IMG/VR virus record: IMGVR_UViG_3300012983_000033
Span: 1-64,000 of that record
Length of the DNA stretch: 64,000 nt
From: a virus
Lineage: Duplodnaviria > Caudoviricetes
Direction: 5' to 3' (one strand)
Position numbers and translations under genes: made by a program. The notes under the pieces are model-generated. The model saw only the letters and a list, made by a program, of their open reading frames with translations, ran no database searches and was not told the DNA's origin. Below are positions 47,334 to 61,105 of the stretch, one piece after another; position 1 is the stretch's first letter; each line of letters opens with the position of its first letter.

Positions 47334-47893
47334 ATTAGTAGGCCTCCATATTATAAGTAGAGTAGTAAGAAGAGAAGTAAACAAAGGGTTAGTAAAAAGT
47401 TTTAGATGTGGATTAAGGTCTTTACTTACCTGTTTACTTTTTCGTTCTTCCTATTAAAAGTATACTAAAATTTTAGTAGTGTGTCAAATTTTTTTATCGG
47501 AAATTAACGGGGAGGGAATAGTTGGCGGGTCCCATTTTGAAAAATTCATTTCGTGGGGAATTGTTTTCAGGGGATTACGATTTAAAACAGAACATTTATT
47601 CAGTTTTCTAAATTACTCCCCCGTACATTTGTTCGGTAAATGTCAATAATAATAAAATTTTCTGAAATCGGTTGCAGTCGCAAAATATTGCGAAATTTGC
47701 CCATTAAATTAATTTTCTATTTCAAGCGGTTAAATTATACCATAAAAACAAAAATGCGTTTATGGGCGTATTTTCGCAACATTTCGGAAATAAAAAAATT
47801 TTTAAAAAAATCAAAAAAATTTTAAAAAAAGTATTGACAATATAATTTTATTGTGATATACTTGTATCAAGATAAAGAAAGGCGGTCATCAAT

Positions 47894-48298
47894 ATGACAT
47901 CAACACAATTCAAAGCAATTCAGACAACAGAAAACTATAACAACGGACAAAAGGCAGAGCAGATCGCCCGCTTTAATATGACGGGTGAATTTTGCAAGGC
48001 AGACAACAAAAAAGCAACAGAGTGCGGCGACTGTATGGGCTATCAAATCAAATCTGCAAGAGCCACAATCTGCAAGGGTACAGACATCGCAGCCCACATC
48101 GAAAGCGACGCAGCAATCGGTTACATCTACATCACAAAAGAGCTTGTAGCCTACACAATGAGCAAAGCCGAATATCTTGAGTTTGCAACACTGTTCGCAA
48201 CGCTCACAAGAGAGAGCACCAAGAACGGCGGAGCCGAAAAGATGAGATTCAAAAGCGAAAGTAAGACACTTCTTGAGTGGCTCAGAGCAAGAGCCTGA
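47894..48298 (+). CDS. Hypothetical protein, possible PD-(D/E)xK-like fold
   Basis: Own promoter and RBS; NNGQKAE...GD...YQIK. Confidence 0.6.
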   Translation: MTSTQFKAIQTTENYNNGQKAEQIARFNMTGEFCKADNKKATECGDCMGYQIKSARATICKGTDIAAHIESDAAIGYIYITKELVAYTMSKAEYLEFATLFATLTRESTKNGGAEKMRFKSESKTLLEWLRARA

Positions 48299-48350
48299 GC
48301 CACTCCCACAAACCACAACAACAATAACAATACAAAAGGAGATAATTAAA

Positions 48351-48533
48351 ATGGATAAATTTGAAAAGGTAATGTTCACAATCACAGCAGTAATAATCGC
48401 AGGTATAATTGCTTTAGCAATATGGGCTTGCGTAGAGTGTGCAGGCACTGATGTAGATACAACACTCACAAACACAAACACAATCATCACAAGTACAAAT
48501 GCGATAATCAATACGGTTAGAACAGTGTTCTAA
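48351..48533 (+). CDS. Small single-TM membrane protein
   Basis: AGGAG RBS; hydrophobic stretch ITAVIIAGIIALAIW. Confidence 0.65.
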   Translation: MDKFEKVMFTITAVIIAGIIALAIWACVECAGTDVDTTLTNTNTIITSTNAIINTVRTVF

Positions 48534-48797
48534 CCGTAAACCTTTATTATTAAAACGAACATTTGTTCACTCATATAAACGAACATTTGTTCACTTCATC
48601 TTGCCCGGGCGACCCGCTTTAGCGAGTTAAAGCGTTAAAGCATAAGGAAGCCCCGCTTTCACGCTTTAAAGCGTTAAAGTGTCAAGTACCACAATGAGCA
48701 AAGTCCCATTAGTTGGACTATGTATATATGATGTATTGTATATTAGGTGTAAGTATGTTATACTATGTATGTAATCAAGAGAGATTGAAAGGAAGTA

Positions 48798-49256
48798 ATG
48801 ATAATGACAAAAGCAATATACTTTGATATGGATGGCACAATCGCAGACTTATATGCAGTTAATGATTGGTTGCCTATGTTAAGAGCCTATGACCCTAAAC
48901 CCTATGCACAGGCAAAACCACTTGTAAATATGCAAGTGTTAGCAAGGTTGTTAAACAGATTGAAAGCAAATGGTTATCACATTGGTATTATCAGTTGGTT
49001 ATCAAAAGAGAGTACAACAGAGTATGACAATGCAGTAACAAAAGCAAAGATTGAATGGCTTAACAAACATCTTAAAAGCGTTGAATGGGATGAAGTCAAC
49101 ATAGTTGCTTATGGTACACCAAAACAGAACATCGTCACTTATAACAATGGTATCTTGTTTGATGATGAACTTAATAATCGAGTTAATTGGGTAGGTACTG
49201 CATACGATGTTGATAACATCATTGAAGTATTAAAAGGGGTATTACATACAATGTAA
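48798..49256 (+). CDS. HAD-superfamily phosphatase (5'-nucleotidase-like)
   Basis: YFDMDGT motif I and ILFDD motif IV. Confidence 0.82.
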   Translation: MIMTKAIYFDMDGTIADLYAVNDWLPMLRAYDPKPYAQAKPLVNMQVLARLLNRLKANGYHIGIISWLSKESTTEYDNAVTKAKIEWLNKHLKSVEWDEVNIVAYGTPKQNIVTYNNGILFDDELNNRVNWVGTAYDVDNIIEVLKGVLHTM

Positions 49257-49387
49257 TATCCCTATTGCCCTACAAGGGCGGGCGGTGATGAAACACGCGG
49301 GTCAGTTGTAATTATAATGATAAAAAGACTTGACAAAAAGATATATATATGATATAATATATATGTAATAAGAAAGGGGTGTTATAT

Positions 49388-49585
49388 ATGACAGAACTTG
49401 AAAAAATGATTGATGTACTTGAAAAAAGTGGATATAGAAGAAACAATGGCTATTTTGTGCAATATGGTATTGAAAGAGATACTCTCACAATTTATAAGGA
49501 AGTTAGGGTAGATTGGTATTCTACTGAAACAATTGAAACAAATTTTGAGTATAACAAAATGGGTGAATTAGTTGAAATTTGGTAA
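49388..49585 (+). CDS. Hypothetical protein
   Basis: Promoter 49330 and RBS. Confidence 0.7.
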   Translation: MTELEKMIDVLEKSGYRRNNGYFVQYGIERDTLTIYKEVRVDWYSTETIETNFEYNKMGELVEIW

Positions 49586-49597
49586 AGGGTGAAAAAT

Positions 49598-49780
49598 ATG
49601 GAAAAATATCAGAAAATCAATAATCAAATTCATAAAGTAAATTATAAAATTTTTAAAAAGGCAAATGAAATCTATTACGGAAATTTTCCGAAATTTTTCA
49701 AAAATTTTCTTTTAAAGAAATATTGCAAAAAGATGAAAATTTCTGTTGATGATTTTATGATGTGGGAAAAATTTTGTTGA
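49598..49780 (+). CDS. Small basic hypothetical protein
   Basis: GGGTG RBS; ends inside a hairpin. Confidence 0.6.
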   Translation: MEKYQKINNQIHKVNYKIFKKANEIYYGNFPKFFKNFLLKKYCKKMKISVDDFMMWEKFC

Positions 49781-59136: not shown

Positions 59137-59204
59137 AAAACACTTGACAAACAATGAAAAGTGTGATATAATATATATGTAATAAAGAAAAGGAGATGCT
59201 AATT

Positions 59205-59471
59205 ATGTCAAGAACTTATTATTGCCCTAAAGAAAGACTTGTGTTTGTATCAGAGGAAGATACAAGAAACTTTTTCTTCGAAGAACAGGTTTACACTTCT
59301 ATGGAATACGAAGGTGATTTTGAAGATTTTCTGTCTGATAAATACACAAGAGCAGATATTTTCAGAATGACAGATGAAGAAAAAGCAGAAGTTCTCGCAG
59401 ATTACCACGAAGTGCTTTTTGAACAGTGGTGTGATGAAGAACTCGAAAGTTGCGACATCTACGCAGATTAA
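59205..59471 (+). CDS. Highly acidic hypothetical protein
   Basis: Promoter 59144 and AAGGAG RBS; strongly E/D-rich. Confidence 0.72.
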   Translation: MSRTYYCPKERLVFVSEEDTRNFFFEEQVYTSMEYEGDFEDFLSDKYTRADIFRMTDEEKAEVLADYHEVLFEQWCDEELESCDIYAD

Positions 59472-59635
59472 ACGAAAAGGTGTAAAGGGATACCCCTTTA
59501 CACCGCCCGGGCATTCGTCATATTGACTAAAATTATGCGGTCGCCGCATTGTAAGTTTGGTTAATATGACGATTGACTTTTCTTTTATTATGGTGTATAA
59601 TAGTATTGTAATCAAGAGAAACGAGGTAAAGAATT

Positions 59636-59806
59636 ATGTTATCTGTTGAAAATGTAAGTTATGACTTAATGTTAATCTCACTTGCAAAACAATTGGGTGC
59701 AGAAGTCGCAGTGGAGTTTGCAGAATTTGTTGTTGCTTCTGGTGACCATTTCGCAATTCAAAAAAAATATGAAGAAATTTTAAAAAACCACTTGACAAAC
59801 ACATAA
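59636..59806 (+). CDS. 56-aa hypothetical protein
   Basis: Promoter 59573 and GAGG RBS. Confidence 0.55.
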   Translation: MLSVENVSYDLMLISLAKQLGAEVAVEFAEFVVASGDHFAIQKKYEEILKNHLTNT

Positions 59807-59852
59807 AACTATGCTATAATATATATGTAATCAAACGAAAGGACTTGATAAT

Positions 59853-60152
59853 ATGGCACTTAATATCAACATTGAAAAAAAGACAGAAGATGTCACTTAT
59901 TTTGGTGATATTCGCAGAGGGGAGTTCTTCCTTTTAGGTGGCAAGGTTTTTGTGAAACTTGAAGAATTTTTTATCACAGACGAAATCATAACAGAACTTG
60001 AATACCAACACGATTTGCAACACGAGTATGACATCGACTCTAACAGGTATAATTGTTGGTTGGTTGGTAGTGAATGTGATTATCGCTATTTTAATAACAC
60101 TACAATAGTTGAAAGAGTTAATATTGATATGAATGTGAGGTATGCAGAATGA
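59853..60152 (+). CDS. Small beta-rich protein, family A
   Basis: FGDIRRGEFFLLGGKVFVK. Confidence 0.7.
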   Translation: MALNINIEKKTEDVTYFGDIRRGEFFLLGGKVFVKLEEFFITDEIITELEYQHDLQHEYDIDSNRYNCWLVGSECDYRYFNNTTIVERVNIDMNVRYAE

Positions 60153-60466
60153 GAGCAACAGGAATTGTAAGAAGAATTGATGATTTGGGAAGAGTTGTAA
60201 TCCCTAAAGAAATTCGCAGAGAAATGAGAATAAGAGAGGGCGATCCTCTTGAAATCTTTGTTGACAAACGAAATAATCTTGTTTGTTTTCAGAGATACGA
60301 TGTTGAAGAAAACTTCATAGAAGAACTGAAAAGAATTTCTGATTCAATTTCAGAACATTATTGTTATAGTGACAACAAAGAAAATGTTCAGATTATTAAA
60401 ATGGCAATCGAAGAAATTAAAAATCAGTTTATCGCAATAAAAGAAAGAGAGGAAAACGAAATATGA
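60149..60466 (+). CDS. AbrB/SpoVT-family DNA-binding protein
   Basis: MRATGIVRRIDDLGRVVIPKEIRR..IREGDPLEIF matches the SpoVT/AbrB N-domain. Confidence 0.9.
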   Translation: MRATGIVRRIDDLGRVVIPKEIRREMRIREGDPLEIFVDKRNNLVCFQRYDVEENFIEELKRISDSISEHYCYSDNKENVQIIKMAIEEIKNQFIAIKEREENEI

Positions 60467-60717
60467 AAATTCAGAGAAAAAGAAAAGAAAAAGTTTTATT
60501 AAGAGATCTTTCTTTTGGTGATGTATTTGAATATAAAGATTATTTCTATATGGTCATCAACTTTGCAGAAATCGTCGACTGTTCAATATGTGGTGAAGAA
60601 CTTGATGTAAATCACTGTTATAATATTGCTTGTGTTGACTTGCAGGAAGGCGATGTTTATAATTTTAATGGTTGTGATGAAGTATACAAAGTTAATGGCA
60701 AGTTCATAGAAGATTAA
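60463..60717 (+). CDS. Small beta-rich protein, family A, with CSIC insert
   Basis: LSFGDVFEYKDYFYM...CVDLQEG. Confidence 0.7.
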   Translation: MKIQRKRKEKVLLRDLSFGDVFEYKDYFYMVINFAEIVDCSICGEELDVNHCYNIACVDLQEGDVYNFNGCDEVYKVNGKFIED

Positions 60718-60992
60718 GAAGTCGAAAGACTTCTTTTTTCTTATATCAAAACGAACAAATGTTCGCGCGTGCCCGGGTAAATTGCCCGGGCGTTTTTGTA
60801 GTATTGCCCGGGCCGAAAAAGTCAAATTCTATCCCATTATATTATATCATATCCACGCTGTAAAGTCAATAGGTAAAAAAAATTTTTTGCTTTAGCGAGT
60901 TAAAGTAGTAAAGCGAACATTTGTTCGTCAAGTGGCGTCCCCTCGTCAAATTTTGCCCTACCTGTGGCGCGTGTCAAATTTTAATTCTGATC

Positions 60993-61105
60993 AAGCTGCG
61001 ATCGAGCTGCGTTTCAGCTGGAGCTGCAAGCTGCGCCCGGTGTCAAATTTTATGGCAGCTGCGTCGAGCTGCAAATTTTTATTATAGTAATACAGCTGCA
61101 GCTGT
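60993..61105. repeat. Cluster of AGCTG(C) repeats
   Basis: Nine AGCTG copies in ~110 bp; GTCAAATTTT occurs three times in 60945-61051. Confidence 0.8.

Follow-up and report, generated by a model that had tools for sequence, protein, structure and literature searches.

When examining a 64,000-nucleotide window of a tailed-phage genome (positions 1-64,000 of the complete 139,671-bp virus genome IMGVR_UViG_3300012983_000033), we observed that some 13 kb of this window, the early, host-takeover-type region of an approximately 140-kb SPbeta-like Firmicutes siphophage in which TAG is read as an amino acid, is an array of about 25 self-contained units, each of which consists of a strong sigma-A promoter, a leader with a ribosome-binding site (RBS), between one and three small genes and a hairpin at the 3' end, and that the boundaries between units are marked by a short GC palindrome, GCCCGGGC, hereinafter the core. 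Among related phages, the units are inserted, deleted and re-ordered with endpoints at or near the core, so the array behaves like the promoter-early stem-loop (PeSL) cassettes of T4-type phages. The interpretation that we favor, with moderate confidence, is that the units are self-expressing, PeSL-like cassettes and that the core is recognized by a dimeric protein of the kind encoded by two genes of the array itself, F04 and F07, and thereby promotes exchange.

The 12 perfect copies of GCCCGGGC in the window (shuffled sequences yield a mean of 0.08 and a maximum of one) are the only copies in the complete genome, and all of them lie within 48.6-60.8 kb. The hexamer CCCGGG is found 17 times in the window, with a sole copy, at 46597, before 47.8 kb. 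Together with seven one-base variants and one split core, the perfect copies bring the number of junctions to about 20, the variants being GCCCGGGT at 51754 and 60771, ACCCGGGC at 56301, GGCCGGGC at 57083, GCCCGGCG at 58284-58291, TCCCGGGC at 58682-58689 and GCCCGGTG at 61035. No core falls within an open reading frame (ORF) with both an ATG start codon and an RBS; overlap is seen only with two TTG-start ORFs, 52022-52315 (core 52253) and 57074-57229 (core 57083), both of which we take to be spurious, the former matching a single relative, in several frames and on both strands, and the latter having a homolog in one relative. The order of the elements is fixed: hairpin and LexA-type box or TTAAAG palindrome, core, inverted repeat or TGAAAC motif, A/T tract, promoter, leader and RBS, with the leader ATATATGTAATCAAGAG present in four exact copies and in nine when counted in a relaxed form. 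Perfect promoters of the form TTGACA-N16-18-TATAAT number 24 in the genome, and 21 of these lie on the plus strand within 49.3-59.8 kb (TTGACA-17-TATAAT, positions 49330-59820, most with a TG-extended -10 element), a density of about one per small gene or gene group. The parts to the left and to the right of the core combine freely, a LexA-type box meeting TTAAAG at 50851, TTAAAG meeting TGAAAC at 54817, a hairpin meeting an inverted repeat at 53355 and a LexA-type box meeting an inverted repeat at 53954. Duplicated genes reside in separate units, as in the case of 55875-56246 and 57836-58219 (plus strand, 71% nucleotide identity); a second duplicate pair comprises 54357-54731 and 61470-61811. 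An earlier, sequence-only reading of this DNA had listed 12 perfect and about seven variant cores, all intergenic, a single preceding CCCGGG, a fixed grammar, free pairing of left and right parts and duplicated genes in different units, and our recount bears out this description.

Across eight phages, the base that precedes the core is C or T in 83 of the 87 copies and the base that follows it is G or A in 74 of the 87, so the element is really a 10-bp palindrome, YGCCCGGGCR. A stable hairpin was found within 40 nt upstream of 91 of the 123 cores (74%) in ten genomes, and in 75 of these 91 cases, the hairpin ends 0-4 nt before the core, with a T-run intervening in seven only, so that the core occupies the usual place of the terminator U-tract. 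The distance from the core to the -35 hexamer, on the other side, varies across genomes between 11 and 60 nt, and, being spaced tightly from the hairpin but loosely from the promoter, the core goes with the closing part of a unit and not with the promoter. The core may also follow a LexA-type box or a TTAAAG palindrome, and the regulatory module of the next unit comes after it. Judging from the strict conservation, the symmetric Y...R extension and the occurrence in phages of 34-48% GC, it is very probable that the core is recognized by a protein. In the literature, a search for its sequence retrieved nothing other than primer sequences.

Relatives of the phage were collected from IMG/VR by pattern and protein searches, the closer ones through F04, and the core was detected in nine further phage records. 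Among the genomes searched whole, there are 27 cores in G001 (also denoted L001), 15 in G002, nine in G003, eight in G004 and 10 in G005, in each case confined to one early region of 7-20 kb, and nine were counted over the locus of G010. The same grammar, complete with the core, spans genomes of 34-48% GC and protein identities down to about 25%. The sister phage G006 (L124), a complete genome of equal size and GC with a collinear backbone at 65-72% nucleotide identity, has no core and carries at the equivalent place (L124 2500-15400) 20 copies of another palindrome, TAGACGT-N3-ACGTCTA, the centers of which precede the -35 hexamers by 18, 28, 38 or 49 nt (R 0.85). From this substitution of one palindrome for another, we conclude that the element at the boundaries is a recognition sequence that is specific to the lineage and strongly constrained. 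The G006 palindrome resembles a class-I-type activator or repressor site, and ten early G006 proteins matched no DNA-binding or nuclease family. Neither palindrome was found in G007, G008 and G009. Enterococcus phage H1 (L144) and phAss-1 (L145) possess similar promoter-dense arrays with no core; in these two phages, many early -35 boxes are located in the loop of a GC stem, with a T-run behind it (GGGG-TTGACA-ACCCCTTTTT), a terminator-promoter overlap that resembles the PeSLs of T4. In G001, one cassette is filled by a tRNA-Lys(UUU) gene (L001 3915-3989) that starts 9 nt past the TTGACA box.

The mobility of the units is apparent from comparisons between the closer relatives. L155 and L150, which are 93% identical, differ by a 712-bp two-gene cassette between two cores. 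L146, the closest relative, shares 82.6% identity with the window phage in its structural genes; it carries two additional core-ended units between F06 and F07, which the window phage lacks, and two additional units between F08 and F02, and its homology with the window ends exactly at the 3' edge of the core at 50851-50858. In L152, the array is re-ordered, such that F06 precedes F03, the exonuclease unit and its neighbor are swapped and one unit is relocated. The exonuclease unit of the window is a core-to-core segment (56301-57090, plus strand) that consists of ACCCGGGC, an inverted repeat, a promoter, the gene for a DnaQ-like exonuclease (56420-57064) and GGCCGGGC; over the stretch from core to core (56298-57081), it shares 83% identity with L152 17308-18092, homology ceasing no more than 4 nt from the core at either end, and its neighbors differ between the two phages. 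At junction 58682, the right flank is 89% identical to that of L152 junction 19483, the left flanks are unrelated and the switch occurs at CCCGGG itself; the left flank of that same L152 junction is found at the variant core 58284-58291. The core at 57582-57589 sits at a recombinant joint, its left flank matching L152 17311 and its right flank L152 18787 (91%), the two flanks of the core at 54817-54824 match different L152 junctions, and at 59505-59512, where the core follows a hairpin, homology with L152 ends at the 3' edge. For no junction of the window do the two flanks both match a single L152 junction. What looked like an indel between L152 and L153 was rejected as a scaffold gap of Ns.

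In four genomes, 12 of the 79 intergenic homology ends are no more than 4 nt away from a core in each of the two partners, compared to a background of 4-6% (p ~5e-4), these ends being non-independent and BLAST being biased to end alignments at conserved islands such as the core; the other 67 ends (~85%) lie away from cores, often in the repeated promoter or leader. Cores are preferred but not sole exchange points. The suggestion of the sequence-only reading that the core is a crossover point or a protein-binding site is thus supported on both counts, through the enrichment of homology ends and, with high probability, through conservation. Its expectation that the breakpoints between relatives would fall at the core stands in part only: indels and re-ordering do end at cores, and the majority of homology ends do not. 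The same holds for the conserved gene order that it named as evidence to the contrary, in that the backbone is collinear with L146, yet units are re-ordered in L152.

F04 is the first gene of the array (47894-48298, plus strand) and encodes a 134-aa protein for which the AlphaFold2 model (pLDDT 90.7) confidently predicts a PD-(D/E)XK restriction-endonuclease-like fold. The closest structural matches of this model are HhaI (Z 6.2), HinP1I (5.1) and NhoI (5.1), with I-Ssp6803I, PvuII and MspI also detected, and nearly all of the top dozen (Z 6.2-3.5) are restriction or homing endonucleases or resolvases. Within the F04 family, down to 25% identity, E22 and K53 never vary and D46 hardly does, and position 51 is taken by Q or S; an Atlas neighbor of F04 carries PDDEXK_16. 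A Foldseek search with F04 gave no match at E <=0.001, the weak matches being restriction enzymes, and the F04 profile retrieved nothing significant from the PDB sequences. F07 (51072-51554, plus strand) encodes a 160-aa paralog of F04, the C-terminus of which shares with it the N-G-E...D...QxK nuclease core (hhalign probability 80%, E 1.4e-5). The F04 profile matches all seven core-bearing records and none of the four core-less relatives; all 12 contigs reached via close F04 homologs contain cores, and so does the 2.7-kb contig L159, with a distant F04 homolog and four cores. Searches of the complete 139.7-kb genome for a tyrosine recombinase (PF00589), a serine recombinase, RecT and ERF yielded no match, so that no recombinase or annealase of these families, as sought by the sequence-only reading, was found in the genome. 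The remark that no recombinase is visible in the window is, accordingly, valid for integrases and resolvases throughout the genome but too strong, given the nuclease-fold genes F04 and F07 inside the array.

Probably, a sequence-specific dimeric protein reads the core, which would account for its conservation, and the best candidate for such a reader is the small restriction-endonuclease-fold family represented by F04 and its paralog F07. Binding or cutting at the core would make it a preferred exchange point, with ordinary recombination between the repeated promoters and leaders adding to the shuffling. A more specific proposal, which we consider unlikely, is that F04 and F07 cut or nick the core and that the early fragments are rejoined or repaired against those of co-infecting relatives, resulting in nuclease-driven shuffling of anti-host genes. 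Under this proposal, exchange might be gated by host LexA bound at a distance of 1-10 nt from the core and thereby be linked to the SOS response, and sister lineages would be expected to carry other nuclease-and-site pairs.

In addition to the homology ends that lie away from cores and the alignment bias mentioned above, several observations weigh against a core-directed exchange mediated by F04/F07-type proteins. The early genes common to L146 and the window phage are collinear, the order of backbone genes is kept across wider relatives too, and a 71-aa unit that L146 carries between F01 and F08 is bounded by promoter and leader repeats, not by cores. Some phasing of the core with the -35 hexamer, albeit weak (R 0.24-0.26), is present across genomes. 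The Z-scores of F04 are modest (<=6.2), and what connects F04 with the core is a correlation only, confounded by shared ancestry: F03, a gene for a HAD-type 5'-deoxyribonucleotidase (48798-49256, plus strand), likewise occurs in all core-bearing records examined but not in G006, the sole core-less genome compared. L162, with a distant F04 homolog, has no core in 11.6 kb, just 1.6 kb of which is downstream. Finally, no match to PF00145 or PF01555, the signature of a cognate methyltransferase, was found in the genome, and an active F04-type enzyme would therefore cut the phage's own DNA; a type II restriction-modification pair was rejected as an explanation on this ground, there being no cytosine or N4/N6 methyltransferase in the genome. 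Gene adjacency is conserved at six core junctions and broken at 24, and at promoter-only junctions the respective numbers are two and three, a sample too small to separate the classes.

The main alternative is that the core is a purely transcriptional operator or insulator, bound at unit boundaries by a regulator of the phage or the host, that serves, for example, early shut-off or blocks read-through, much as the SPBRE repeat of SPbeta is bound by MrpR, with recombination as a passive by-product of conserved GC-rich microhomology in AT-rich DNA, an explanation that we regard as possible, if doubtful. The strong phasing of the replacement palindrome with the -35 hexamer (R 0.85) favors a transcriptional role for the G006 element at least, most G001 cores are centered ~25-30 nt upstream of the -35 hexamer, promoter repeats act as crossover points too, and SPbeta, a relative by its terminase and Yon genes, has a repeated operator at ~10 promoter regions (PMC10516654). 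In the window phage, however, the core lies 51-60 nt from the -35 hexamer, with other modules in between, and about half of the promoters have no core; phasing over the set of genomes, at an R of about 0.25, is weak, and the spacing of the core is tighter on the side of the upstream hairpin (0-4 nt) than on that of the promoter. Contiguous GC palindromes of 8-10 bp are, moreover, more typical of restriction-type readers than of helix-turn-helix dimers. A function in RNA, whether of the core together with the hairpin as a 3'-end, processing or stability signal or of pairs of cores that base-pair in read-through transcripts, appears very unlikely to us, despite the position of the core next to a stable hairpin in place of the U-tract and despite two local structures. 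Of these, the adjacent cores 60771 and 60784 at the array end pair into an 11-bp stem followed by a T-run, a terminator-like arrangement, and the split core at 49797-49838 (GCCCG, a TTAAAG palindrome and CGGGC, followed by a LexA box at 49846) forms the base of one long hairpin (-25.8 kcal/mol, z -6.6). A single GCCCGGGC, however, cannot self-fold, no Rfam family matches, and the strict symmetric conservation, including the Y/R flanks, points to recognition of duplex DNA.

A host factor might also read the core, as a Noc/ParB-type clamp site or in a restriction-related or Chi-like function on the first-entering DNA. The central CCCGGG is shared with the Noc-binding site of Bacillus subtilis, the sites cluster in one region and the core is maintained in phages whose hosts are probably different; nevertheless, the flanks of the core differ from those of the Noc site, the use of an unrelated palindrome by the sister phage G006 argues for a phage-specified reader, and precise intergenic placement is not predicted by a Chi-like or restriction role, all of which leaves this explanation highly improbable. 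A phage-encoded ParB/Noc/KorB reader was rejected, the genome having no match to ParB_N (PF02195). The label "integron-like", which the sequence-only reading attached to the array, implies a dedicated site-specific recombinase that excises and inserts cassettes at the core, and this we find scarcely credible. Cassette indels between two cores do leave one intact core, and the LexA boxes beside cores recall the SOS control of integron integrases. However, the complete genome encodes no member of the Phage_integrase or Resolvase families, nearly every unit is expressed from a consensus promoter of its own, an attI/Pc platform is missing, the core, at 8-10 bp, is a perfect palindrome and not a folded attC site of 60-140 bp, many breakpoints are in promoters rather than in the core, and the backbone order is conserved. 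The absence of tyrosine and serine recombinases, RecT and ERF indicates that the array is not an integron, and the label has to be abandoned. We return to self-expressing cassettes with a core read by an F04/F07-type protein as the preferred interpretation.

The assignment of the phage to the large SPbeta-like siphophages of Firmicutes follows from its terminase and its YonB, YonD and YonG structural genes, which place it near the phAss-1 group and the Enterococcus phages H1 and EF1 (PMC10607447). It does not belong with the T4-like myoviruses, the terminase and YonB/D/G being SPbeta-like. The minus-strand late genes (window 10000-47400) and those in the remainder of the genome, among them frames of 9.9 and 10.7 kb, are open only with TAG readthrough; the early array is written in the standard code, and its proteins are mostly without known function. 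Of ten array proteins searched against Pfam and PHROG, just the HAD nucleotidase, the exonuclease and an AbrB/MazE protein could be assigned, a megablast search of the region against 50,697 phage records gave no match, and no relatives of F04 were found in representative bacterial genomes. Adjoining the array and divergent from it is a minus-strand gene (45729-47384) with in-frame TAGs, including a tandem TAG-TAG; its product shows, by eye, a sigma-region-4/LuxR-like helix-turn-helix near the C-terminus and is possibly a regulator of late genes that is not produced until TAG suppression sets in. A homolog of this gene adjoins the F04 homolog in L162.

The array opens with its first early promoter (47834-47862, plus strand; TTGACA-17-TATACT), and near-LexA boxes, GAACATTTATTC and GTACATTTGTTC, are located at 47570-47640, 200-260 nt before this promoter. 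The LexA-type box proper, GAACATTTGTTC, is present in eight copies and one inverted copy, all within 48.5-60.9 kb, and nine of the 13 GAAC-N4-GTTC sites of the genome fall in the array; in G004, GAAC and GTTC are kept and the N4 is variable. With half-sites conserved and the center free, the boxes fit the Firmicutes LexA (Cheo) type, CGAAC-N4-GTTCG, and are putative binding sites of LexA. Two such boxes (48557-48592) directly precede the core at 48603-48610, which has TTAAAG palindromes on its right. At 51754-51790, the variant core GCCCGGGT, a LexA box and the perfect core at 51783 succeed each other, with a TGAAAC module to the right. The core at 52253-52260 is followed by the inverted repeat TGCACAAA...TTTGTGCA and a promoter, the core at 53355-53362 abuts the hairpin CTGTAAAGGCGAAAGCCTTTACAG with no intervening T-run, and the core at 55758-55765 has a hairpin, a T-run and a LexA box on its left and an inverted repeat on its right. 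To the right of the core at 53954-53961, the inverted repeat is accompanied by a TTCGTCA/TGACGA module; such inverted repeats extend over the -35 box at 53990-54025, 57090-57146 and 59513-59578 (for example, TGACGATTGACA). They match the Spo0A box, TGNCGAA, which would suggest sporulation-linked repression, a form of control that is known for phi29. A gene for an AbrB/MazE/SpoVT-type DNA-binding protein (60149-60466, plus strand; PF04014, E 4e-11), common to only two core-bearing relatives, lies close to the end of the array, which is formed at 60753-60813 by an inverted LexA box and three cores (60771, 60784 and 60806).

Several consensus promoters are followed by no credible ORF (51842-52250, 54020-54140, 54147-54240, 57689-57770 and 61216-61440), and these stretches are candidates for small RNAs; the segment 54055-54125 folds strongly (-25.3 kcal/mol, z -5.0), and the segment 51953-52154 is 74% conserved in G010. 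Rfam and tRNA scans of the window gave no matches, the Rfam scan including the candidate small RNAs. Just beyond the last cores, at 60880-61110, repeats of GTCAAATTTT and (G)AGCTGC cluster together with minus-strand promoter-like sites, and this cluster may be a replication or packaging element. A gene-poor stretch at 62540-62620 contains tandem TATACTTATAAG-like units.

The early regions of large phages hold most of their unknown anti-host and anti-defense genes, and the speed with which these are exchanged calls for an explanation. With a short boundary sequence that is exactly conserved, the units can be delimited automatically across a clade of uncultured, TAG-recoded gut phages. A 10-bp palindrome and a small protein of nuclease fold also form a pair amenable to testing, together with a natural control in the form of the other palindrome of the sister phage.

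Dense, strong early promoters for the host RNA polymerase and many small genes of unknown function within a contiguous block of ~13 kb are features that the array shares with the host-takeover module of SPO1 and the pre-early region of T5; neither of these is known to have a conserved palindromic junction element or cassette exchange. With integron attC arrays, the phage array has in common small genes split by a recurrent, recombination-prone site with LexA boxes nearby. Integron cassettes, however, are promoterless and depend on a common Pc, IntI and attC sites with R''/L''-L'/R', none of which is found in the phage array, and the hairpins beside the cores vary in sequence, unlike attC. F04 and F07 share the fold and the E...D...(Q/S)xK motif with small type II and homing endonucleases of the PD-(D/E)XK superfamily (HhaI, HinP1I, MspI and I-Ssp6803I), and the core is an 8-bp GC palindrome of the kind read by small type II restriction endonucleases. 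In contrast to type II restriction systems, there is no partner methyltransferase, the fold matches are modest, and the recognition of GCCCGGGC by F04/F07 is putative, based on co-occurrence.

Within the SPbeta group, a precedent for a short repeated element read by a phage protein is SPBRE, a 15-bp motif of temperate SPbeta that is bound by the master repressor MrpR (YopR), a protein with a tyrosine-recombinase fold (PMC10516654). SPBRE, like the core, is short and conserved and recurs at some 10 or more places in the intergenic or promoter DNA of an SPbeta-type phage; the window phage differs in that its element is an 8-10-bp palindrome at unit ends and no role in lysogeny is evident. No MrpR-like protein was detected in the genome with PF00589, a model that a divergent MrpR might escape. 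The closest parallel is provided by the PeSLs, the promoter-early stem-loop mobile regulatory cassettes of T4-type phages (Arbiol et al. 2010, PMC2839356; Comeau et al. 2014, PMC4122927), an analogy already drawn in the sequence-only reading, and aptly so. In both systems, composite repeats of a promoter and a stem-loop are interspersed between small, non-essential early ORFans in a hyperplastic region, indels and replacements end in the repeated element and the units are self-expressing; in the array, the combination is represented by the 21 perfect promoters and by the hairpins at 74% of the cores. In the PeSL system, exchange between neighboring elements gives rise to mini-circles. With the array, the PeSL concept, hitherto one of T4-type phages that infect Gram-negative bacteria, comes to include siphophages of Firmicutes. 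What is new here is the lineage, namely, a TAG-recoded, SPbeta-like siphophage of Firmicutes rather than a T4-like phage, the exact GC palindrome of 10 bp placed between hairpin and promoter, and the replacement of this palindrome by another one in the sister phage. Also new, in comparison with the PeSLs, are the attached LexA-type and other palindromic modules and the co-occurring family of nuclease-fold genes.

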